Shown here in pieces: positions 20,189 to 60,713 of a DNA stretch of 64,000 nucleotides. The stretch is from assembly GCA_965198285.1 (NCBI GenBank), contig OZ240251.1:3445752-3509751 (forward strand). The letters are read 5' to 3'. Origin of the DNA: Chloroflexota bacterium (lineage in GTDB: Bacteria; Chloroflexota; UBA11872). How positions within the stretch are numbered: the stretch's first letter is position 1; each line of letters begins with the position of its first letter. The notes beneath the pieces are model-generated. The model worked only from the letters and a program-made list of their open reading frames with translations, did not search any database and had not been told where the DNA came from. Both the position numbers and the translations under genes were made by a program.

Positions 20189-21799
20189 TTGCCTGAGACT
20201 ATGGTCATTAACGATCTAAACGCACTCCTGCAAGCTAAAACTAAGATTGAAAACCTCCTCGAGAATGGTGATACGACTGAGGCTTTTGATTTTGCAGACA
20301 ATCTTTGCGCAGGATCGGGCCAAGAGTCCCTTGTGAGAAACCTGCGTGCATGCACATACGCTGACGTAGGCGAACAGAACAATCAGATCTCTCTAATCGA
20401 AGAGGCAATTCGCATTTGGCGTTCGGCCGGGGAAGAAATCACAACTCGCGAGTCGTACAACTTGGCAAGCTCTATGTTGAGCATTTGGAGTCTCTATGAA
20501 GGGCAACACGGATTTGCCGATACTTGGCTGGAACAACGCGACTATCTGCGCGATTCTAGGAAGATATTCTCAGAAATCGCTAACGACGAGGGAGCTGAAA
20601 CAGAATTCCGGTTAAAGGCGCTAACTGACGCTGGAAACTCTTACGACAATGTCGGACGGCACACGGACGCCATCGATTGCTTCGATCGTGCACTCGCGCT
20701 CGACTCTTCATTTGCAATGGCGACGGGCAATCGCGGCCTGGCCCTCCTCTACGCATCGCCTTACATGAGGGATTTTGAGCGTGAGATTGAGCTACTCGCG
20801 GCAGCAGACCTTGATCACGCGATAAGTAATTCGGAAAGCGTGCTAAAGCATGGCGGAGAGTCGGCGCTAGAGAGCTTTCGCCGGCAGCGCTCTGCAATAC
20901 CTGACTTGCCGAGTGCATCTGATGAATCTGAACCGATGCCACCTAGGTTTACCGATCCTCATTTGACCTGGTGCCTGCGCGAAGGGCTCTTTCTGCACGT
21001 AGCGCCGTGGCTGGTGGGTAGCAATGCGTCGGTTCTCGACCCAATTTTCTTCAGGCGCATAATAACGAGTCTCGGCGCAAGGGACATAACCCTCACCAAT
21101 GAGATCATTGACGCATTTAATACGATTAAGCAGGACTTTGTGTCGGCTCGCTATTTGGTGTGGGCATCGAGTGAGCCTAGCAGTCCAATCTGGACGCATG
21201 CTCAGTCGATCAGCTCGCACGTATCATTTTTGGATACTCTCGATTACGGCAGGTGGGGCGTTCGAACTGGTACTGCAATTCAGGCATTCAAGGCGGCTGT
21301 AGATGTTCTGGATAAGAGTGCGTCCTTTGCACACTTGTACTTCGGCACCAAACAGGCAGCTCGTCGTGTATCGTTTCGTAGCCTACCTTACGAGGACAGC
21401 GCACGTCGAAACGTTGCGGCAGCGTTTGAGAGTGCTTTGAACGGAAAGTCGCCTAACCGAGGGTTGTCGGCCTTAATGGATCTGAGCTACGAACTTGATG
21501 ACGAGGGATCATCGCCTCTAGCACTTAATGTAAACATGCGACACGCTGCCACGCATCGGTTCTTGACTGTTCATTCTGAGATGGCTCCGGAATCGTCGGA
21601 CTGGAGTGAGCGAATCAACTGGCGAGATCTCATCGACGAGTCTTTGTGTCAATTACGACTTGCGAGGTCTGCAATATTCTATTTAGCGCAGATGATTGAC
21701 ATGCAAGAGGATGTCAAGATTGCTACGGAAGCTGGAATGTCGGTGACCATGGCGCTGCCATATGCAAGGCTAGACACTGACTTGCTGGAGGCCGAATAG
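20189..21799 (+). CDS. TPR-repeat protein with C-terminal HEPN-like R-x4-H motif (candidate LA2681-type HEPN RNase / Abi-like protein)
   Basis: 536 aa. The N-terminal two-thirds holds several TPR-like helical pairs (for example AIDCFDRALALDSSFAMATGNRGLAL). At the C-terminus ...ALNVNMRHAATHRFLTVH... gives R-x4-H, the HEPN catalytic signature, in a predicted all-helical region. GC is about 45-50% against ~68% for the flanks, and there is a clean ATG with no overlap. Confidence 0.45.
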   Translation: MPETMVINDLNALLQAKTKIENLLENGDTTEAFDFADNLCAGSGQESLVRNLRACTYADVGEQNNQISLIEEAIRIWRSAGEEITTRESYNLASSMLSIWSLYEGQHGFADTWLEQRDYLRDSRKIFSEIANDEGAETEFRLKALTDAGNSYDNVGRHTDAIDCFDRALALDSSFAMATGNRGLALLYASPYMRDFEREIELLAAADLDHAISNSESVLKHGGESALESFRRQRSAIPDLPSASDESEPMPPRFTDPHLTWCLREGLFLHVAPWLVGSNASVLDPIFFRRIITSLGARDITLTNEIIDAFNTIKQDFVSARYLVWASSEPSSPIWTHAQSISSHVSFLDTLDYGRWGVRTGTAIQAFKAAVDVLDKSASFAHLYFGTKQAARRVSFRSLPYEDSARRNVAAAFESALNGKSPNRGLSALMDLSYELDDEGSSPLALNVNMRHAATHRFLTVHSEMAPESSDWSERINWRDLIDESLCQLRLARSAIFYLAQMIDMQEDVKIATEAGMSVTMALPYARLDTDLLEAE

Positions 21800-21840
21800 G
21801 CACCTGACTGTCGTCGTAGCACGGGCTGCTAGGACGCGAA

Positions 21841-21981
21841 GGTCTCGGGTTTGGCATTAGTGGCGGCTTGTGGTGGTTCCGAAGAGGATGATTCGCTTGG
21901 GTTTGAAGCGGTCGTGGATGAGTTGGGTGATGGCTTGGTTGGTTTCGCGGTTGAGAGGCTCTTCGACAACGCGAATTGGGG
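21841..21981 (-). pseudogene. possible remnant of a minimal nucleotidyltransferase (MNT/pol-beta NTase) N-terminus
   Basis: Minus-strand frame gives ...PIRVVEEPLNRETNQAITQLIHDRFKPKRIILFGTTTSRH(stop). The h-x-x-L-x...K-R-I-I-L-F-G segment resembles the helix plus hG[GS] start of MNT antitoxins, but it stops before the catalytic D.D. It has no start codon and overlaps the restriction-modification gene stop. Confidence 0.2.
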
Positions 21982-24900
21982 CTAGACGGCCACCTGGGCT
22001 TCGGTGTCGCCGGCGGTGAGGGCGTTCATGTAGGCGAGGATTAGGGCTTTGGTGCGGTAGTGGTTGAAGGCGGCTTGGTCCTGGCGTTGGATGATGGGGA
22101 AGGTGGAGAGGATGTAGGCCGCGTCTTCGCGGGTGAGGCCGTAGAGGTGGAAGTAGAGGGCGTCGAGGCGGGCTCGGAGGTGGCGACGTTCTTCGGGGTC
22201 CCAGGGGAAGGGTGGGCCGTGGTGGCCTAGGTCGCGGGCGAAGGGGGCCATGTCGTGGGCGGTGTAGGTGAGGCGGAGGACGTGGTGGTGGACGAGGTCG
22301 GCGGCGGTGCGGTCGCCGAAGCGGCGGTGATAGGTGGCTGGAGGAAGGACCGGGAGTTGCTCGACGGTGTACCAGGTCAAATGCTGACCCTGGACTTTCT
22401 GGCGGGCAACGAAGTCGAACGCGAACGAGTTCAGGGAGGCGAGCCAGAAGCAGGCATTTTCCTTATAAGTGGCGACGTCAGCGTCGGGCATCAGCAGCGG
22501 CAGTGTGTGACCGGCGCCTACGCGCGGAATGATTGAGGCGATGACTGCCCGGACATTCGTTGGCGAAGTTACGTCCTTGAACGCCACTGCCCAACTCAAT
22601 TCATCGGGCCACTTGATGTCTTGCTCACTAACCCAGAACTGAGGAGTCGGTAGCCAATATGGATCGCCGTGCTCTTCGGCTGTGGCCGGTCTTGGCTGGG
22701 CGGGTCGGTGGAGATTCTTCCGGTTGACAACCACGCTGGCGGCGCGGTGGTCAAACGCCTGTGTCATTTTCCCCTCATAGAGAGGGACGTAATGATCAGC
22801 GCCACGCTTCCAACGATTGGCTTGGACGGGGTAGAAGCCCTCTTCCTGCAGTTCGGACGTGGTTCGGAAAAGGTGAGATGAATTGGCCATGTCCAGCATG
22901 CGGACGTAGCGGACGGGCCAAGCGCGGCGTTCGTCGTCGCCTGAACGGTCCACCAGGACAGGATGGTCCTGGTAGATACGGCGAGTGATGTCGGCGTCGC
23001 GGCGGGTGCGGAAGACGGGGGCGGTGCCGGTGTTGGGGTTGACGCGGGCGAAGTCGTCGGGGCTGAGGGTAAAGGCTCGGTCAGGGTCGGTGATGGTGGT
23101 GTCAGGCAGGAAGAAGCCGCAGCGGGTCTCGGGGAACGTGCGCCCGGGTCCGCCGATGATGAGGGCGCAGAACTTGAAGCGGGAGTCGATGTCGGGGAAG
23201 AAAGGCGGCAATTCGGTTCCGAGGCGACGGTTTTCGAAGTCAAAGATTCCGGCGACGCGGCCGGTGGTGGAGACGGACTGGAAGAAGCGGGCGGCGGTGC
23301 GGTCGGCGTAGATGCCGGAGGGGGTGAGCAGGCCGACGAGGCCGTTGGGTTTGACGAGGCGCAGGGAGCGTTCGACAAAGAGGGAGTAGAGGTTGATGTC
23401 GCCACCGCCCAACAACGGGTAGTGGCCGGAGGCGCGGATGACCTGGCCGAGGCGGTCGGCGCGGGCCTTGGCCTTGTCGAAGGCCACGGCCAATGGAGCG
23501 CCATGTTCGCGCAGGCGCTTGATGCCTTCGTGGCGGGCGGCGGCAGTGGCGGCACGGGCGAGATCTGGGTCCCTGGTGGCAAACCACTCGACTTCCTGGA
23601 GCTTGATGCGGTCCCAAGGGGGATTGCCGATGACAGCGTCGAAGCCGCCCTCGGGGGTTTGGTTTTGCCAGTGACGCCAGACGCCGGGGAAGGCGGCTTC
23701 CCAGTGGAGGAAGGATTCCTGGTCGGCTACAGAGTGGGCCTCGGCCAGGCGCTCGCGAAAAGCGGTTGAACGATTGTGCGCTCGGTCGCCCGGCGGACGC
23801 GCCAACTGCTCGTAAGCGCGGCTGGCGTCGGCCCCCAGCGTCTCGGCTATTGGCGCTTCGAATACGGCACGCTGGCGGACCTTGAGGCCGGCGGTGAGCC
23901 AGCGGAGGCCGGTGAGGGTGTCGAGGAAGCTGCGGAGGTCGGCAGTGGCGGACTCGACGGCCTGGAAGAGCGACTGGGACTGGTGGACTTCCGACACGTC
24001 GGCATCGGAGAGCTGTTCGATCCGGCGCATGCCCTGGGCGGCGTTCTCGATGCCTTGCAGCGCGCTGGACACGAACATGGGCACGTCCAGCCGCTGCAAG
24101 TCCGCCGTGGCGTCGGCGCTGTGCAGCCCCAGCAACGAATCTCCGCAGCGTAAATGGTGATCCAAGAACGATAGGGGCGCGCCGACCGTGAAGCTATGGA
24201 GCCAGAGGGAGACCTTTGCAAGTTCGACGGTGAGCGAGTTCTTGTCCACCCCGTAGATGCAGCGCTTGAGCACCAAGCGGCGGATGATGGCCTGGTCGCT
24301 CAACTGGGTCTCGTAGACCTTCCAGCCGGACGCGTGAGCGCGATGCAGGATGTCAGAGCGAATGGCGGCGATACGGTCAAGCAAGGGCGAGTGGTAAGGG
24401 TCGTCTTCGGGCAGCCAGTCGGGGATGGCGGGGACGAACTCAATCAGGTCGGCGACATAGTCGGTCAGGAAATCAACGGCGGTGACTAGGAAATGGCCGC
24501 TGCCCATCGCCGGGTCCAGCACCTTGAGATCGAGCACGGCCTGGGCGGGGTCCAGGCGGGCTAGCTCGGCGCGGCGCTCGGCTTTGGGGCGGCGGTCGCC
24601 CTTCAATTCCTTGGCCCGGGCCTCGAAGGCGTCCAGGCGTTCCTCGATGAGCGGCTTGAGGGTCTGGTCGACTATGAGGTCCACGAGATCCTGCGGGGTG
24701 TAGAAGCTGCCGCTGTCCTTGCGGGCGTAGGGGTTGGGGCGGACCGTCACCGCCCCCTGAGCGTCCAGCACCGGTTCCTGTTCCAGCAGACGTTCGTAGA
24801 TGGATCCGAGTTGCTGGACGGACATGTCGCGGTAGTTGACGTAGCGGCGCTGGCCGTCGGTTTGGGTGTGGCTGAGGTCGTAGATGATGTCGGCGATGAC

Positions 24901-26004
24901 GTTGTCAGAGACGCGGACCCTGCCAAGAAGTTTGGAGGCGTCCTCGGCAAACAGGCCGCCGTTGTAGGGCGGCAGGCCGACGTCCGGATCTCCCTGATCA
25001 ATCTGCCGGAAGAGTTCCTTCAGGTGATTCCAGTAGCTGGCAGCTGTGTCCGAGAAGGTGTCGTTGCGGGCTTTGCGCTCGGCTACGTCGTCGCGTACAC
25101 GCTTGCGGAGGCCGTAGTCGTCGTAGGCGGCGTCGTTAACGGGCAGGAGGCCGCGGTCTTCGGCGTAGAGGACGAAGAGCAGGCGGTAGAGAAAGATGAG
25201 GGCGGCTTCGCGGATTGCGGGCATGGGCCGGTCGGTGGCATCGGCCAGGGCCTGGAGGAGGCGGGGAAAGACGCGCTGGAAGACGACGCCGGCGAGGCTC
25301 TGGGCGACGCGCTGTTCGTAACGACGGCCCTGGTCTAGAGCGGTCTCCAGGAAGGTGACGGCGGCGCCGGGGCGGCGCAGGAAGGCGGAGCGGCGAAAGA
25401 GAAGGTGGAAGGTGCGGAGGGCGTCCTGGTCGTCGGCTTGGAGGAGGGCCTGGAGGTCGGCTTCGTAGTAGGCGGTGGCGCGGGGGCGAGTTTTCTGGTC
25501 GTAGAGACGCCAGACGGCACCGTTGGTGAGGATCCCCCAGCGGAGGTCGCCGTCGGTGACGGTTTCGGCTTCGCGGAGGTAGCGAAGGATCTGGGCGTGG
25601 GGTGAGGAGGCCTGGAGTCCCTTGCCGGAGCCGCGGGTGTCGAGGGGACGACGGAAGCGTTTGAGCTCGGCGACGGCGAGGGCTTCGAGGAATGAGCTGG
25701 CGTTGGAACCGGTGGCGCGGGTCTTGGCCTGGGCGTCGGGGAAGAGGAGCAGGTCGGGGATATTTTCGCCGCCGCTGGTCGTCTGCTGGGAGAGGTCGTC
25801 GGTCCAGCCGAGGAGTTGGAGCAGGGGACGAATGAGGTCCTGCTCGGTCTGAGTCTCGTTGGGGTTGTGGGCGGTGGGGAAGTCCTGGAAGAGGCGGCGG
25901 GCTTCGTCACGGAAGGTGTTGTAGGCGCGGCGCTGGGTTTGGCGCTCGGGGGTTTGGCGGATGCCGTCGGTGAGGAAGTACTGGGTGAATAGGTGGCCGG
26001 GCAT
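21982..26004 (-). CDS. Type IIG (MmeI-like) restriction-modification enzyme: PD-ExK nuclease + gamma-class N6-adenine methyltransferase + target-recognition region
   Basis: 1340 aa. The N-terminus ENIPDLLLFPD...LAVAELKRF resembles the MmeI-family D...ExK nuclease core. Motif I is VLDPAMGSGHFLV (about aa 515) and motif IV is GNPPW (about aa 790), in gamma order. A C-terminal ~550 aa region ends with an Eco57I/MmeI-like tail (YVPLYEGKM.QAFDHR ... LYGL...YIL.TFPI). No separate methylase gene is nearby. Confidence 0.7.
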   Translation of the reverse strand: MPGHLFTQYFLTDGIRQTPERQTQRRAYNTFRDEARRLFQDFPTAHNPNETQTEQDLIRPLLQLLGWTDDLSQQTTSGGENIPDLLLFPDAQAKTRATGSNASSFLEALAVAELKRFRRPLDTRGSGKGLQASSPHAQILRYLREAETVTDGDLRWGILTNGAVWRLYDQKTRPRATAYYEADLQALLQADDQDALRTFHLLFRRSAFLRRPGAAVTFLETALDQGRRYEQRVAQSLAGVVFQRVFPRLLQALADATDRPMPAIREAALIFLYRLLFVLYAEDRGLLPVNDAAYDDYGLRKRVRDDVAERKARNDTFSDTAASYWNHLKELFRQIDQGDPDVGLPPYNGGLFAEDASKLLGRVRVSDNVIADIIYDLSHTQTDGQRRYVNYRDMSVQQLGSIYERLLEQEPVLDAQGAVTVRPNPYARKDSGSFYTPQDLVDLIVDQTLKPLIEERLDAFEARAKELKGDRRPKAERRAELARLDPAQAVLDLKVLDPAMGSGHFLVTAVDFLTDYVADLIEFVPAIPDWLPEDDPYHSPLLDRIAAIRSDILHRAHASGWKVYETQLSDQAIIRRLVLKRCIYGVDKNSLTVELAKVSLWLHSFTVGAPLSFLDHHLRCGDSLLGLHSADATADLQRLDVPMFVSSALQGIENAAQGMRRIEQLSDADVSEVHQSQSLFQAVESATADLRSFLDTLTGLRWLTAGLKVRQRAVFEAPIAETLGADASRAYEQLARPPGDRAHNRSTAFRERLAEAHSVADQESFLHWEAAFPGVWRHWQNQTPEGGFDAVIGNPPWDRIKLQEVEWFATRDPDLARAATAAARHEGIKRLREHGAPLAVAFDKAKARADRLGQVIRASGHYPLLGGGDINLYSLFVERSLRLVKPNGLVGLLTPSGIYADRTAARFFQSVSTTGRVAGIFDFENRRLGTELPPFFPDIDSRFKFCALIIGGPGRTFPETRCGFFLPDTTITDPDRAFTLSPDDFARVNPNTGTAPVFRTRRDADITRRIYQDHPVLVDRSGDDERRAWPVRYVRMLDMANSSHLFRTTSELQEEGFYPVQANRWKRGADHYVPLYEGKMTQAFDHRAASVVVNRKNLHRPAQPRPATAEEHGDPYWLPTPQFWVSEQDIKWPDELSWAVAFKDVTSPTNVRAVIASIIPRVGAGHTLPLLMPDADVATYKENACFWLASLNSFAFDFVARQKVQGQHLTWYTVEQLPVLPPATYHRRFGDRTAADLVHHHVLRLTYTAHDMAPFARDLGHHGPPFPWDPEERRHLRARLDALYFHLYGLTREDAAYILSTFPIIQRQDQAAFNHYRTKALILAYMNALTAGDTEAQVAV

Positions 26005-39705: not shown

Positions 39706-41457
39706 CTAGCCGGCCGGGACGTCTTCAGGGGGAACGCCGGTCTCCCCGGCGGACGGCCCGCCGACCTGTGGTGGCGCCTCGGGCGGCGAAGACTCGGCCT
39801 GGTGGCCGGGCATCAGGAAACCGGATCCGTTGCGAATGGCGGCAAAGTCGCGCCAGGTCCAGACCGCGGGATCGACCGCGGCGCCGGCGACGTGCACTTC
39901 CCAATGCAGGTGCGGCCCGGTTGAGCGGCCGCTCGACCCAACGGCGCCAATCGCCTGTCCGGGCGTGACCTCTTGTCCGGCGACGACGTCAATGCGGTCC
40001 AGATGAACCACGGCCGAGTACACGCCGAAGCCATGATCCAGAACCACACTGTTGCCGCGGATCGCCAGCGGTCCGGCCCAGGCGACCCGTCCGGCGGCTG
40101 GCGCCGCCACCAGCGCGCCCAGCGGCGCCGCCAGGTCCGCGCCTTCGTGCAGATAGGGGATGGCGCCCGGATGAAAAACGCGCCGCTGTCCATACGGCGA
40201 CGTGGCAGTCCCGCTGGCCGGTATACCGAAGACCCCAGTCCACAGCGGCGGTCCACTGAGGCGGTCGACCAGGGTCTGAACGAACGCCCGCTCGTCCGCC
40301 GCCGTCAGCGGGTCTAACAAGTGAGCGATGTCCTTATCGACGGTGAGTTCAATCGACTGAAACGTCCCGGCGGCAACCTGGAACTCATGCCCCTGCGTCA
40401 GCCCCCCGACATCCACCCTGAGCTGCCGCGGGCCGGTTTGGGCCTCGGCAGACAGGCCGACCAGCGCGTGCCAGGCGCCGTCTGAACAGGCCAGCGGCAA
40501 AGACCTACCGTCAAGGTTCAGCCGAACGTCGGGCCGGCCGCTGGCTAGTTCAACCAGAACCGTGGCGCCCTGCACCACAGGTGACTGGCCCAGGGTCAGC
40601 TCCAGGTCGACGGGCGCGGCGGCGGCGGGCGGCGCCGGAGTGACGGCCACGTCAGGAAACAGTCCCGCCTCCCGCGCTATTGTGCCGCTGTTGGCAAAGA
40701 TCACCTCGCCGGCCCGCGCCCACGGAGTGTCCGTGGTCCACTGTTGCAGCACCACGCGCTGTGCCCGCAGCACGCGCACGGCGCCGAAGTCCTGATACGC
40801 GATGGGGAGGCCGAAGCGGGTCAACCAGTTGGGCGCGGCCAGAAACTCCGCCCGGATGTCTGGATTGGCGTCCAGCAGCGCCAGGTGGTTCGCAGTAATG
40901 ACATCGAACGGCTGGCCGGCGTCGGCGGGCAGCGCCTGGTGCGGGGGAACCTGCCGGAACGCTTGGAGCCAGGCATCGAATCCGGCGTGGTGCAAGCCGT
41001 CGAGCGTGTTGGCCGCGTTGGCGCGGTCCGCGCCCAGGTCCCACTGCAAGACCATTTTCTGGAATGCCTGAACGGTAAAGCCGTGTTGCTGGAATCGCTG
41101 CGAGATGGGGTATCCGACGACAGGTATCCCACCCAGGTCCTGGAAGGTGGACCAGAAGCGGGCGTCGGCGTCATCCCATACCGGGAAGCCGATGCCGTGG
41201 CCGCCAGTCTGGGTGTAGAACCAACCGCCAGGAATAGCGAAATCCGGGGCGCAGGCGGCCGAAAACTCGCCCTGATGTTCATCGGCTCGGGCCACGCCGA
41301 CCAGCAGGCAGCACAGGAGAACCCCAATAGCCGAGGCACCGAGGACACGGCGAGTCAGCAACTGGGCCACGGAGGGCAGCCTAGCATCGAGTTGGCACGT
41401 ATGATTTTCCGACTGACCAACGCAGGGATGCACCGCGCGTGACGTGTCGGTGCGCAA
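39706..41457 (-). CDS. secreted M23-family (LytM) peptidase with N-terminal domain shared with the protein at 58428..60713
   Basis: The C-terminus has the HxxxD ... HLHWEV M23 motifs (YLHEGADLAAP...GPHLHWEVHVAG). There is a signal-like segment VLGASAIGVLLCCLLVGVARA. The start is uncertain, with an alternative GTG near 41361. The middle 200 aa align with 58428..60713. Confidence 0.65.
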   Translation of the reverse strand: MRTDTSRAVHPCVGQSENHTCQLDARLPSVAQLLTRRVLGASAIGVLLCCLLVGVARADEHQGEFSAACAPDFAIPGGWFYTQTGGHGIGFPVWDDADARFWSTFQDLGGIPVVGYPISQRFQQHGFTVQAFQKMVLQWDLGADRANAANTLDGLHHAGFDAWLQAFRQVPPHQALPADAGQPFDVITANHLALLDANPDIRAEFLAAPNWLTRFGLPIAYQDFGAVRVLRAQRVVLQQWTTDTPWARAGEVIFANSGTIAREAGLFPDVAVTPAPPAAAAPVDLELTLGQSPVVQGATVLVELASGRPDVRLNLDGRSLPLACSDGAWHALVGLSAEAQTGPRQLRVDVGGLTQGHEFQVAAGTFQSIELTVDKDIAHLLDPLTAADERAFVQTLVDRLSGPPLWTGVFGIPASGTATSPYGQRRVFHPGAIPYLHEGADLAAPLGALVAAPAAGRVAWAGPLAIRGNSVVLDHGFGVYSAVVHLDRIDVVAGQEVTPGQAIGAVGSSGRSTGPHLHWEVHVAGAAVDPAVWTWRDFAAIRNGSGFLMPGHQAESSPPEAPPQVGGPSAGETGVPPEDVPAG

Positions 41458-45907: not shown

Positions 45908-48127
45908 TTGCTCAACAACCCTGACACTCAACCGGCACTCATGCGCAATCGCGCGACGACAATCTGCTGGGTCGGATTGAGCGCTCTTGCGAGCGGATGG
46001 ATCGGCGCCGTCTTGGTAGGCGGCCCGATCGGATTAGGCGCTCCTACCTTGGAAGCCCTGACTGCGGGCGGCGTGATGGCCGCGATCGTCGCGCTCCTCG
46101 CCCGGCACGCCGCGCCCGCCAGCCGGCGCATGTTCGCCACGGTGTATCTGCTGACGTCGCTGCCGCTCATCGGCGTGGCTGTCGCGATGTACTTGAGCGA
46201 CCAGTTGGTGCACCTCATGACACGGTCCAGCGCGCTGGGCTGGGTACTTGTCGCGACCTTTCCTCTGCTCGCCGCCATCGCCGCAAAGCGCACGGGAGGA
46301 TCCCAGCGGGGCGCTGACATCGCGTTTGGTTGCACCGTAGGCGTTGCGGCGGCAGCTCTGATTCACGTGGCGGCCGCCGATACCTTGACTTTCGACCTCC
46401 GTTGGGCACTAGTGGGGAGCATCGTCGGAGTTGTCGTGGTCGGCGGAATCGCGCTGGCGTTGCCACAGCCGGCACCGCGCACGCCATTGGGAACGACCTG
46501 GCGCACCGCGCCCTGCGCCGCCGCTTGGGTCATGGCAGTCATCACCGCCGTTCCTGCCGCTCCCCGACACGAACTCTCCACATCCGCCGGCGCCCAGGTT
46601 CTGGCTGTGACGATCGCTGGCGGTCTGCTGCTGACGGCATTTGCCTTTTGGTACGGAGAACGCGGTGCGACGTCCCAACCTGCGTGGGCGGTATTTCGGT
46701 TAGGGATGCACCGGTTCGCTCCAAGGATTGCCACCCTCGCGCTGTTCCTCGTCGGCGGACTCCAGGCTGCGTCGTACTCCGAGGTCACGATTGACGACCT
46801 GGGTCAGTTTTGGATAGCAGCGGACATGTTGGCGACCGAGAGGACCTTTCCGATTGGGATGCACAGGGCGGGTCTGCCGGGCCTGCCACTTCTGCTTGTT
46901 GCGGCGTTCGCCGCCCTTGGGCGGACATATCCGGCCGCATTGGCGCCGATGTTCCTCGCAAACATCCTGCTCCCATGGTTGATCTATCGGGCAGCCTTGG
47001 CAGCAGGCGCCAGTCGTCTGGCTGCGTTCGCAGTTGCTGTTCTTGCCGTCGTACTTCCGGTGATTCAAATATATAGCCTCGGCGCGGCCGATCCCGACGC
47101 AGTATTCATTGCCCTGCTCGCTGCCGCGGTCTGGGCATTTAGCCACGTACTCCGGACGCGCAGACCGCGCCAGTCAACGTTAGTACTCGGGTTTCTCGCC
47201 GGCGCGCTAGCCATTACACGCCCAGAAGGACCCCTTTACGGCGGACTATTGCTGCTCGGCACGTTGGTCGCGACTCGATCTGTATGGGCGATAGTTGGGT
47301 GCTACATAGGCAGCGCTATCGCGGCACCTGTTGTAGCACTTAGCCTAGCCAATCTCGGTAGACCTTGGCCAACATTCGGCCCTGAGCTCTCGCTCGCCAA
47401 CATTGCGGAGAACGCGAGAGTAGTTGGTGGTATCACCGCACCAAAGGTGGCACGCGTCTTACTCCTCAACGACCTAAGGTTTGCCACTCTGCTCGCAGCG
47501 GTCCTAGCTCTATCGGTCGTCGGATCAGCACACCTCGCTAAGAGTCAGCGGGCATTTATCGTCTTGCCTGTGGCCGCTGCTACGAACGTCGTCGTGAAGC
47601 TGAGCATTAGTACTTACGGGGTGCCTCTCCGCTCCGACTTCCCACCGGAATTTGTGCGGCATATTGCCTACCCGATGCCGGTTTTTGCTGTGCTTATTGC
47701 GGTGGGGGTATCGGTTCTAGCCACGCTGACCACAGCTCGTGGCACAACGGTAGGCAAACTTGGTCAGTGTGTTGGGATCACAGCGGCCGTGTATCTTGTA
47801 GCTGGCAGCCTCTATATCCTTGGTACGCCCGAAGAGTTTCATCACGGAAACCAGAGCGGCAGCCTGCTCGCCGACAACATCTACGTCAACGCACCAGAAC
47901 TCTGGCTGAACCCTTTTGACCTCCCCGGCCGCGAATGGGATTTCTTCGAATACCGCGACCGACTGTTTGCCTGGTACGCGCCGTTTGACAACCACAGCGA
48001 TACGGCCGGCATGGCTTATCAGACCCTCACCGGTGCGGTGGCGGCAATGGGATTTGCTGCCTTGCTTGCGGCGGCGCCAAACCGCCGTTCATACCCGGCA
48101 CCTCGGGACGATGGCACGGAAGCCTGA
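45908..48127 (+). CDS. polytopic membrane protein, GT-C-like (putative polysaccharide glycosyltransferase/polymerase)
   Basis: 739 aa with more than 12 predicted TM helices. There is an acidic DD motif (EVTIDDLGQFW) in an early loop. The 3' half (about 47150-47900) is visibly lower in GC. Confidence 0.4.
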   Translation: MLNNPDTQPALMRNRATTICWVGLSALASGWIGAVLVGGPIGLGAPTLEALTAGGVMAAIVALLARHAAPASRRMFATVYLLTSLPLIGVAVAMYLSDQLVHLMTRSSALGWVLVATFPLLAAIAAKRTGGSQRGADIAFGCTVGVAAAALIHVAAADTLTFDLRWALVGSIVGVVVVGGIALALPQPAPRTPLGTTWRTAPCAAAWVMAVITAVPAAPRHELSTSAGAQVLAVTIAGGLLLTAFAFWYGERGATSQPAWAVFRLGMHRFAPRIATLALFLVGGLQAASYSEVTIDDLGQFWIAADMLATERTFPIGMHRAGLPGLPLLLVAAFAALGRTYPAALAPMFLANILLPWLIYRAALAAGASRLAAFAVAVLAVVLPVIQIYSLGAADPDAVFIALLAAAVWAFSHVLRTRRPRQSTLVLGFLAGALAITRPEGPLYGGLLLLGTLVATRSVWAIVGCYIGSAIAAPVVALSLANLGRPWPTFGPELSLANIAENARVVGGITAPKVARVLLLNDLRFATLLAAVLALSVVGSAHLAKSQRAFIVLPVAAATNVVVKLSISTYGVPLRSDFPPEFVRHIAYPMPVFAVLIAVGVSVLATLTTARGTTVGKLGQCVGITAAVYLVAGSLYILGTPEEFHHGNQSGSLLADNIYVNAPELWLNPFDLPGREWDFFEYRDRLFAWYAPFDNHSDTAGMAYQTLTGAVAAMGFAALLAAAPNRRSYPAPRDDGTEA

Positions 48128-56989: not shown

Positions 56990-58260
<1,271 letters not shown>

Positions 58261-58427
58261 CCAGATTGAGTCCGGGGCCGGTTATTCCTCCCCTGGCAAG
58301 AGGCGAAGCGCGGCGCAGTCCATAAGTGCTCGCCATGGCCACACCGTTGCCGGCGTGCGGGATTGGAACTCGTCTCATTCGGCGCATGAATAGCTGACAC
58401 AACTCTTATACTTGCCGGGGACTCTAC

Positions 58428-60713
58428 ATGGTCCCTCGGCAAAGTGTGGACGCCGTGCGGGTAGTGAGGCGGCTGTTCATCACCGCGCTGGTTGGCGTGC
58501 TGCTCGCGGCGTTGACGCCGTCGGTGGGCGCGGTGGGGTGCGGCGGGATTGACTTAGAGGGCGGGTGCCTGTTCACCGTGACCGGCGGCGATACGCCGGA
58601 CCCGGATGACGGGTTTGCGGTGACGAATGCCGACGACGTGCCGCTTTGGGACTTTGTGCAGGCGCGCGACCTGGACGCGCTGGGCTATCCGATCAGCCAG
58701 CGTTGGACGGACGGGCCGTTCACGCTGCAGGCGTTTCAGAAGGTGATCCTGCAGTGGGACCCGGGCGAGCGGCGGATGAACTTCTACAACACGCTGGACG
58801 CACTGGCGAACCGCTATCCCGAGGTCGCGCTGCCGTTCGTGCCGGTCCACCAGGTGCTGGAAATGGATGCCGGCGCGGACTTTAGGACGGTGACGCGGAA
58901 CCACCTGGCGTTGCTGGAGGAGAACCCGGCGATCAAGGCGCGGTTCCTGGCGGAGCCGGACTGGTTGAACCTGTACGGGTTGCCCATCCGGTACGAGGAG
59001 CGGGCGGTCGAGGGGAACCCGCAAGGGGTGCAGTTGCTGCGCACGCAGCGGACGGTGTTCGCGGTGTGGAACGTGCCGGCGCCGGGGACGACGATCGGGC
59101 AGGTGCTGCTGCAGAACGTGCCGGACCAGGTGAAGAAGCTGCGCGACGTCATCGTTCCGGATTACGTGAAGCGGCCCGTCCGGGAAATCGACGATATCGA
59201 CACCGAAGTGGCTGCGGCCATCGACGCGTTGCCGTGGACGACGGATGGCGTGAGTCCCCTGGAGCGGGCTGCCATCCAGCGCCTGGTACGCATTGCGCAA
59301 CACTTCCCCGACCTGTTTTGGTATCTCGTCGGCGAGATGGAGCTGTTCGCGAGTGTCCTCTCTACCGTCACCAAGCCACTCCACAGTCCGCTGACCGCGA
59401 CCATCCCGGACAGTCTTGACGTGGTCTTTGACATTGCCAGCCTCCCGTGGATCCGGGACGGCCTCACAGATCTCGAGGACCTGACCGCACGGACGCTGTA
59501 CGACAGCGCCTTCGGGTGGCCCGTGACCATTGCGGCCCTCTTGCAACGGGATTGGCTGCACGATGGCCTCAGCCACGATGAACAGGGCGTTCTTGATGAA
59601 ATGTACAGAACCGTACTTTCAGACTCGCCGTATGCCAATAACCGGCAAGAGAGTGATCACCTCGTGGCACGACTTGTCGCGATGCCATTTATGGATACAA
59701 TTGAGGGTTTTGAGGGGGACATATTTTATAGCTTGCGCCGAGTGTACGGCATCGGATACGACACACCGGAACATCTCGACGCTACCGAAGGTATCGTGTC
59801 ATATATAGGCTCAAAAGGTGGCCTTACGGATGACCACGCTCTCATCCTCATGATTCACGGCAGGGATCAGCAATATGAAGACAGCATTACGGATCCCCAC
59901 GATCCTCGGCAATTCGACCAATATCTTGTCGATCCCGCGAGTCGAGGGATAACGATAGAGCGTCGCCAGATTTCGCTACCGGTGTCTGGTCCAACGCAAC
60001 TGATCGTGCTACGGGACGTACCGGTATCCGCGCAGACCATGGATGTCTTTGAGGAAGCCGTTCGTGCCGTCGAGCAGATCATGGGGGTGCCATTTCCGAC
60101 GAAGAACATCGGCGTTAGAATAACACCGCGCTCTGGAAGTAGTGGGGGGACACCGTTTATTACGGTGGGCGGCAGGCACTTTCCAACTGGAGAGATAAAC
60201 CTCCGTCTGCGATCAGTTTTTGTGCACGAATTAGGGCATCAGTTTTGGAACGGGTCAGCGGATTGGATTGACGAGGGCGCCGCGATGTTCCTCCAAGTAC
60301 GATCCGGGACCATGACCTTAGATGAATTGGAGTGGAGGCGCACTCACTGTGAAGTGAACAGGCTGGCCGACCTTCATTCCATTTGGCCAAGATGGACCGA
60401 CTGTCCATACTCGCTTGGAGCTAGTTTATTTGTTGATCTTTACGATGCGTTAGGACACTCTGAGTTTCAGAGGAGATTTAGCAAACTGTATCAAATGGTC
60501 CGTACCCTTGGTAATAAATACTACAAATACAGTATTGGCAATGTATGGGGTAGCGTAGCCCGCTATTGCTTCAGTTGCGGCTGTGACTATTGCGGCGGAG
60601 AGGATCCCTCGGTCTACCATGTTCGGCGTGCCTTCGTCGATGAGAGCGATCCGGCGACAGCGGCGACGGCCAACCACATCATTTGGCACTGGTACTACGA
60701 TCGGGGTCAGTAA
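58428..60713 (+). CDS. secreted zinc metalloprotease (HExxH), N-terminal domain shared with the M23 peptidase gene
   Basis: 761 aa with a signal-like N-terminus. Residues about 50-250 align with 39706..41457 (YPISQRW..FTLQAFQKVILQWD..NHLALLEENP...). The C-terminus has HELGHQF...WIDEGAAMF, an HExxH plus downstream Glu (gluzincin-like). The 3' half has about 50% GC against about 66% for the 5' half. Confidence 0.55.
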   Translation: MVPRQSVDAVRVVRRLFITALVGVLLAALTPSVGAVGCGGIDLEGGCLFTVTGGDTPDPDDGFAVTNADDVPLWDFVQARDLDALGYPISQRWTDGPFTLQAFQKVILQWDPGERRMNFYNTLDALANRYPEVALPFVPVHQVLEMDAGADFRTVTRNHLALLEENPAIKARFLAEPDWLNLYGLPIRYEERAVEGNPQGVQLLRTQRTVFAVWNVPAPGTTIGQVLLQNVPDQVKKLRDVIVPDYVKRPVREIDDIDTEVAAAIDALPWTTDGVSPLERAAIQRLVRIAQHFPDLFWYLVGEMELFASVLSTVTKPLHSPLTATIPDSLDVVFDIASLPWIRDGLTDLEDLTARTLYDSAFGWPVTIAALLQRDWLHDGLSHDEQGVLDEMYRTVLSDSPYANNRQESDHLVARLVAMPFMDTIEGFEGDIFYSLRRVYGIGYDTPEHLDATEGIVSYIGSKGGLTDDHALILMIHGRDQQYEDSITDPHDPRQFDQYLVDPASRGITIERRQISLPVSGPTQLIVLRDVPVSAQTMDVFEEAVRAVEQIMGVPFPTKNIGVRITPRSGSSGGTPFITVGGRHFPTGEINLRLRSVFVHELGHQFWNGSADWIDEGAAMFLQVRSGTMTLDELEWRRTHCEVNRLADLHSIWPRWTDCPYSLGASLFVDLYDALGHSEFQRRFSKLYQMVRTLGNKYYKYSIGNVWGSVARYCFSCGCDYCGGEDPSVYHVRRAFVDESDPATAATANHIIWHWYYDRGQ

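Follow-up and report, generated by a model that had tools for sequence, protein, structure and literature searches.

The window analysed here, a 64,000-nucleotide stretch of contig OZ240251.1 from a Chloroflexota bacterium, encodes two predicted peptidases that carry the same N-terminal domain on different catalytic domains. The first, a protein of 761 amino acids (aa) referred to as the HExxH protein, is encoded on the plus strand at 58428..60713 and consists of a hydrophobic N-terminal segment, the shared domain, an alpha-helical region in which the motif '(P)W/F-x-x-D-G...E' recurs at least four times and an M1-like gluzincin catalytic domain, ending in a Cys-rich C-terminal tail. The second is an M23 peptidase encoded on the minus strand (Table 1). 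BLASTP aligned aa 12-230 of the HExxH protein with aa 34-256 of the M23 protein (39% identity over 233 columns, E 3e-38), bearing out the homology of about 200 residues that had been noticed in the initial annotation, and tblastn found no third copy of the domain in the window. The copy in the HExxH protein belongs to a sponge-Chloroflexota subtype with a conserved Cys38/Cys47 pair, that of the M23 protein to a general Chloroflexota subtype that begins with 'GGWFYTQTGG'. The segment preceding the domain in the HExxH protein (aa 1-35) was called heuristically as a signal peptide or membrane anchor, the best 15-mer having a Kyte-Doolittle mean of 2.55. In both proteins a twin-arginine pair lies upstream of the hydrophobic core (VVRRLFITAL within 58428-58532 and LTRRVLGASAI within 41300-41360); export by the twin-arginine (Tat) route is conceivable for both, and NCBIfam gave no Tat-signal match.

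Searches of the shared domain against Pfam, NCBIfam and PDB sequences gave no match, and neither a catalytic family matching it nor a description of it in the literature was found; the earlier view of an unassigned segment attached to different catalytic domains thus stands. Among 20 diverse domain sequences none matched LysM, SH3b, PG_binding, SPOR, SLH or CW_binding up to E 10, and the two full proteins matched no known peptidoglycan- or surface-binding family of Pfam or NCBIfam up to E 1, so that the possibility named initially as a counter-argument, a known peptidoglycan-binding domain, finds no support. The AlphaFold2 (AF2) model of the domain has a predicted local distance difference test (pLDDT) score of 92.7 and a predicted template modelling (pTM) score of 0.87, and the predicted fold is compact and mixed alpha/beta, with many invariant polar and aromatic residues, the polar ones including Y52, Q69, N86, D89, R170, Q172 and R173. 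A unit motif, 'LG[YF]P...G..Q.FQ..LQW.P', is present twice, and the two halves of the domain align in register (E 0.009, at low probability), which is a suggestion of an internal duplication. The motif resembles the LGFP repeat, a resemblance that served as a lead only. Membership in the LGFP family (PF08310) was not confirmed by Pfam, Foldseek or comparison of unit profiles: the Pfam model hit one of the 20 domain sequences (E 0.046) and one of 35 full-length proteins (E 0.0075), both below threshold, the top Foldseek match of the domain (6swz, LGFP of Corynebacterium MytA/PS1) has a TM-score of only 0.28, and a profile of the repeated unit found no match among PDB sequences.

With 1.84 billion representatives searched exhaustively by profile, 1,947 clusters (50% identity) fall into the family at E<=1e-3; 693 of these still match at E<=1e-30. 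All named members are annotated as 'hypothetical protein' and derive from metagenome-assembled genomes (MAGs) of Chloroflexota, Dehalococcoidia or Thermomicrobiales. As far as sampled, the domain appears to be restricted to Chloroflexota, and on the evidence of these searches it represents a large domain family of this phylum that had not been described before. Among the 131 best new representatives it is mostly N-terminal (108 proteins) and otherwise C-terminal (19) or internal (4); 110 of them have an N-terminal hydrophobic segment, and the usual place of the domain is directly behind the signal peptide. The fusion partners are very diverse, with 74 Pfam families in 96 scanned proteins and no family in more than four of them; they include Amidase_3, Peptidase_S11, glycoside hydrolases (GH5, GH18, GH99, GH113), Trypsin_2, LRR, PD40, Kelch, SH3_3, CAP and sulfatase domains, as well as cytochrome c. 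Because of the terminal position, the signal peptide and the diversity of the partners, the domain would fit a promiscuous extracytoplasmic targeting or anchoring module. The initial annotation had proposed a targeting or cell-wall-binding module; the fusion partners favour the general targeting or anchoring part of this proposal, and for the wall-binding part no matching peptidoglycan-binding family was found. The module would tether or target its cargo to a common partner in the cell envelope, most likely a wall or surface glycan, and the M23 enzyme and the M1-like peptidase would then act at the cell surface.

Other roles for the domain have to be weighed against the same evidence. A domain that is terminal in 127 of the 131 proteins together with a signal peptide, that is joined to extremely diverse cargo and conserved above any of it, and whose copies are more alike within a genome, as if all had to fit one machine, could also be a sorting tag for a dedicated export or attachment machinery, comparable to the C-terminal domains of the type IX secretion system (T9SS) or to sortase and PEP-CTERM signals. 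We regard this as unlikely, since known sorting tags are far smaller than a compact alpha/beta domain of 215 aa with many invariant residues, which moreover can stand at either terminus and was not adjoined by a conserved machinery gene in the loci inspected. The many invariant polar residues, and the fact that both carriers in the window are peptidases, would also be compatible with an enzyme or a regulatory pro-domain. Little credence can be given to this alternative, as no catalytic family matches the domain and its partners extend from dozens of unrelated enzyme classes to non-enzymes (LRR, Kelch, PD40, cytochrome c). An envelope-anchoring module is therefore the reading retained below.

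Table 1. Positions of the two module-bearing proteins and their parts in the window
Feature	Position	Strand	Remarks
Signal peptide or membrane anchor (predicted), HExxH protein	58428..58532	+	aa 1-35; hydrophobic core RRLFITALVGVLLAAL
Shared domain, HExxH protein	58533..59177	+	aa 36-250; GC3 ~0.9
Alpha-helical repeat region, HExxH protein	59178..59945	+	aa 251-506
M1-like gluzincin catalytic domain (predicted) and stop codon	59946..60713	+	aa 507-761; GC3 0.40-0.64
Hypervariable patch, HExxH protein	60117..60215	+	aa 564-596; strands directly before HExxH
Zinc-binding motif HELGH (aa 600-604) ... WIDEG (aa 613-617)	60225..60278	+	
M23 peptidase gene, second copy of shared domain	39706..41457	-	583 aa
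Shared domain, M23 protein	40630..41253	-	about aa 69-276
Peptidase_M23 catalytic domain	39868..40152	-	aa 436-530; HEGAD + HLH

The assignment of the M23 protein is straightforward. PF01551 matches aa 436-530 with 95.7 bits (Pfam cut-off 28.7), and both zinc-ligand motifs are present, HxxxD as HEGAD (aa 437-441) and HxH as HLH (aa 516-518), which marks the protein as a bona fide M23 peptidase. Relatives of the M23 type with only 217-279 aa are probably not genuine stand-alone modules; they derive from split open reading frames (ORFs) and are probably frameshift artefacts. In two close relatives (L078, 4001-5705, and L079, 4001-5547) the M23 gene appears as two adjacent or overlapping ORFs, the module followed by the M23 domain; the long-read coverage of these contigs is 2x and 10x, pointing to probable frameshift errors rather than gene fission.

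The cargo of the HExxH gene was assigned by structure prediction. A full-length AF2 model, built from a 35-sequence alignment (A2), has a pLDDT of mostly 75-96 over aa 255-761 and of about 85-95 in the catalytic region, and shows alpha-helical repeats (aa ~254-506) followed by a domain of a beta-sheet plus helices. When this last domain was compared with the PDB by Foldseek, 32 M1 chains were matched at E<=1e-3, the best being 6a8z (E 3e-6); the other matches include ERAP1, ERAP2, IRAP and tricorn F3, with 15-19% identity over approximately 240-270 columns. The modelled cargo has the thermolysin-like catalytic-domain fold of M1, and the only HExxH motif of the protein (aa 600-604) is located on the first of two predicted helices (H592-607 and H612-626), with the Glu ligand on the next, an arrangement characteristic of clan MA(E). 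At the sequence level, the Pfam M1 model (PF01433) remains below its cut-off (11.4 bits vs 27.7, E 0.24) and matches weakly in only three of 35 family members, nine of which show weak matches to BSP (PF04450). Furthermore, 11 residues separate the second His of HELGH from the Glu of WIDEG, compared to 18 in canonical M1 enzymes, and the GxMEN exopeptidase motif is absent from the window protein and from all 110 long family members. The cargo was therefore classified, on the basis of the model, as a new gluzincin family with an M1-like core and not as a member of M1. Since GxMEN is absent, aminopeptidase activity is not expected, and the enzyme is probably an endopeptidase.

The HExxH...WxxEG signature is intact in 87 of the 110 long members and degenerate in the others, with approximately 22% of the members having no HExxH. 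The motif has been lost while the fold and the N-terminal module are kept in P0047, P0050, P0053, P0062, P0063, P0084, P0105, P0116 and P0119; such HExxH-less members are probable pseudo-peptidases. A second site of variation is a hypervariable patch at aa 564-596, in which the nucleotide identity is 76% and 14 aa are changed against relatives, L001 among them, that are otherwise 92-94% identical. It is located where M1 enzymes carry a substrate-binding strand and may set substrate specificity. Mutagenesis of the patch by a diversity-generating retroelement (DGR) was considered and rejected, since the changes involve all bases and no cargo copy or template was found in the window.

A full-length search returned 290 relatives of the HExxH protein. 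The mean identity of 90 full-length members to the query is 74% in the module, as against 35% for the helical and 37% for the catalytic region, and alignment A2 contains about 85 invariant columns in the module vs about 10 in the other 510 residues. The 74 loci found in a scan of reference genomes all belong to Chloroflexota MAGs; to judge by isolate names such as RHO, COS and CO36386, these MAGs seem to come from marine-sponge metagenomes (cf. Robbins et al., 2021; PMC8163846). Module genes are numerous in these genomes, up to ten per genome among the fetched loci alone, and often stand in tandem. Arrays of two or three module genes are seen at L003 (10040-21349), L020 (1335-8211) and L049 (1656-11175), and within arrays the modules share 88-93% aa identity, the cargo 26-60%. 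In a large survey of sponge MAGs no collagenases were reported (PMC8163846). An unannotated, fast-evolving M1-like family may thus matter for the processing of host protein by symbionts. Whether the module is a structurally new, phylum-wide envelope-anchoring domain under concerted evolution, and the M1-like cargo a set of sponge-symbiont surface peptidases and pseudo-peptidases directed at host matrix or peptides, can at present be proposed only tentatively, the two parts being less probable jointly than not.

The HExxH gene is a mosaic in base composition. In 200-nucleotide windows the GC content stays at 0.62-0.70 as far as ~59.5 kb, and between 59.6 and 60.6 kb it is only 0.44-0.57, so that the drop over the 3' part that was described initially is real; it is located chiefly at third codon positions. 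Over the first 250 codons the GC content at third positions (GC3) ranges from 0.84 to 0.96; it drops to 0.70-0.80 in codons 251-400 and to 0.40-0.64 in codons 401-761, whereas GC1 and GC2 stay nearly flat up to the last ~100 codons. Compared with the other ORFs of the window, mostly at GC3 0.75-0.86, the 5' part is somewhat above and the 3' part well below. Since the drop is chiefly one of GC3, amino acid composition does not account for it, and neither does low complexity, which had been named as a possible trivial cause: tandem repeats are absent, and of the three regions the low-GC part is the one with the highest aa entropy. The initial annotation had placed the junction at about 59.55 kb and asked whether it coincides with a domain boundary, which is not the case. 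In this gene the sharp GC3 step lies at codon ~386 (59583, ~59.58 kb), within the helical region, and is distinct from the end of the shared domain at codon 250 (59.18 kb).

The same GC3 profile is found in the orthologs at L001, L002 and L003 (94, 72 and 56% identity), of which the latter two sit in different genomic contexts, and altogether in 43 genes of the family, which come from more than 25 genomes, all of about 63-69% GC. In the mean profile of 37 family genes, GC3 drops from 0.87 to ~0.72 at codon ~245, with conservation dropping from ~0.75 to ~0.4 at exactly this codon, and then declines gradually to ~0.6 by codon ~390; in the sub-lineage of the HExxH gene the higher-GC3 block extends to codon ~386, and this is the step described initially. 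Across loci, the module has a median GC3 of 0.88, the M1-like cargo one of 0.63-0.64, and other cargo on the same module one of 0.78, approximately the background. The GC mosaic is a long-standing, family-wide property and not the result of a recent fusion.

Comparison with close relatives adds a second layer of variation. Synteny with L001 and L004 starts at 58230; upstream of this point the window carries an IS110-family transposase (57268..58206; Pfam DEDD_Tnp_IS110 and Transposase_20), whereas L001 and L004 carry a transketolase-like gene. Approximately 30 nucleotides past the end of the transposase, at 58239-58258, there is a perfect hairpin (TTCCGGCG-AAGA-CGCCGGAA), precisely where the shared gene order with L001 and L004 ends. 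Identity to L001 is 99.7% over 58230-59500, 76-98% in the 3' half of the HExxH gene and 76-93% in the downstream genes. In a three-way comparison the window equals L001 at 58.4-59.1 kb and L004 at 61.0-61.3 kb, and L001 is closest to L004 at 59.5-60.7 kb. Such alternating tracts of near-identity read as ordinary strain-level homologous recombination that is not tied to a domain boundary. The near-complete identity of the 5' part to L001 was also considered as a domain-specific event and rejected, since the tracts alternate across the region, including the neighbouring gene. In the module the ratio of nonsynonymous to synonymous substitution rates (dN/dS, Nei-Gojobori) is 0-0.29, compared with 0.5-0.8 in the helical region, 0.4-1.0 in the catalytic region and 0.13-0.17 in the flanking MBL gene, and codons 351-761 show 49 GC-to-AT vs 33 AT-to-GC changes.

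The module is clearly under strong purifying selection. We propose that the mosaic would reflect two evolutionary regimes within one gene: the module would combine strong purifying selection with partial homogenisation among the paralogs of a genome, and recombination-associated GC bias may lift its GC3 (~0.88) above the background, while the M1-like cargo would evolve fast, under relaxed or diversifying selection and with a net GC-to-AT flux, so that its GC3 (~0.63) would come to lie under the background. Indeed, modules joined to unrelated cargo are 82.2% identical within a genome vs 77.3% between genomes (the pairs being non-independent), which suggests either that the paralogs undergo gene conversion or that they are co-adapted to a single partner specific to the genome. 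Higher GC3 has been linked to recombination in bacteria (Lassalle et al., 2015; PMC4450053), and by analogy a recombination-linked GC bias could be the cause of the high GC3 of the module. A drift of the cargo to an AT-richer mutational equilibrium would fit its high dN/dS and its surplus of GC-to-AT changes.

Several results qualify this proposal. At matched aa identity the synonymous mismatch is equal within and between genomes, and synonymous sites saturate early at a GC3 of ~0.9, a confounding factor, so that a lower within-genome synonymous divergence could not be distinguished and gene conversion is only a possible cause. Within the cargo, GC3 and conservation are not significantly correlated (rho 0.32), and cargo GC3 is the same in members with intact and with degenerate active sites, so that relaxed constraint after the loss of catalysis was rejected as the cause. 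The low GC3 of the cargo is thus only partly explained.

Two further explanations of the mosaic were weighed. The initial annotation had suggested a recent replacement or fusion of the catalytic half, the 3' 1.1 kb of the gene, for which the source would have been a foreign donor of lower GC. A GC3 of this part far under the window baseline, the shift of GC1 and aa composition to AT-rich codons near the 3' end, the IS110 transposase immediately upstream and the strain-level recombination tracts across the gene would be in line with such an event. It is nevertheless extremely improbable, because the mosaic is common to the orthologs and the family genes, and the three-module architecture persists to ~36% identity. 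Furthermore, the 3' half departs from L001 to about the same degree as the flanks, the unusual feature being the near-identity of the 5' half, and no cargo without the module or in lower-GC hosts was found, either by a word-indexed profile search that returned only 15 family members or by a metagenome scan with a closer profile, both being narrow searches. Alternatively, the low GC3 could be kept by selection, for example if AT-ending codons lowered or paced the translation of a potentially harmful secreted protease. That GC3 is low family-wide regardless of active-site integrity, and does not track conservation within the cargo, would be expected in this case; the GC-to-AT excess and the high dN/dS, however, fit a mutational explanation at least as well, and selection of this kind appears quite improbable. 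We therefore favour, with moderate confidence, an envelope-anchoring module and an old mosaic arising from two evolutionary regimes as the best explanation overall.

Two other features of the window also differ in composition. A low-GC patch at 20189-26004 (GC 0.53, GC3 0.54) holds a gene for a TPR and HEPN_LA2681 protein (20189..21799) adjoining a 1,340-aa Eco57I/MmeI-like type IIG restriction-modification gene (21982..26004). The patch resembles a small defence islet and is, of all segments of the window, the best candidate for foreign DNA. Another intragenic composition shift is found at 45908-48127, in a gene for a 739-aa PMT_2-type glycosyltransferase with a GC3 of 0.66 and a low-GC stretch at 47-48 kb.

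The envelopes of Chloroflexota are unusual and poorly characterised, and to our knowledge nothing is known about how exoproteins are retained in this phylum. If the proposed role is correct, the module would play the part of SLH, LysM or LGFP domains and recognise an envelope polymer specific to the Chloroflexota wall, and a domain found in ~2,000 clusters would offer a handle on exoprotein retention as well as a route to the polymer and to prediction of the surface proteome. The mosaic also carries a methodological caution, as a sharp intragenic GC3 step can be ancient and family-wide without recent transfer.

In comparison with known systems, the shared domain is closest in architecture to the LGFP, SLH, LysM and SH3b anchoring domains of monoderm bacteria, which are likewise terminal, on secreted proteins and joined to varied cargo including wall hydrolases. 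However, LGFP consists of tandem short repeats, whereas the shared domain is a single unit of 215 aa with a helical insert. The M23 protein shares the Pfam match and the HxxxD and HxH motifs with wall endopeptidases of the LytM/MepM type, but where characterised M23 enzymes have LysM, SH3b or coiled-coil N-terminal regions it carries the shared domain. In the M1-like cargo, 'WIDEGAAMF' corresponds to the third-ligand motif 'WLNEGFA' of M1 (PF01433; e.g. 6a8z of Deinococcus radiodurans, and ERAP1); instead of the N-terminal beta domain and the ERAP-type C-terminal domain of M1, the window protein has its own helical repeats. As in the case described by Lassalle et al. (2015), the more conserved and apparently homogenised part has a GC3 above the background, but here the contrast is found inside individual members of a multigene family, and the GC3 of the other half is lower than the background.

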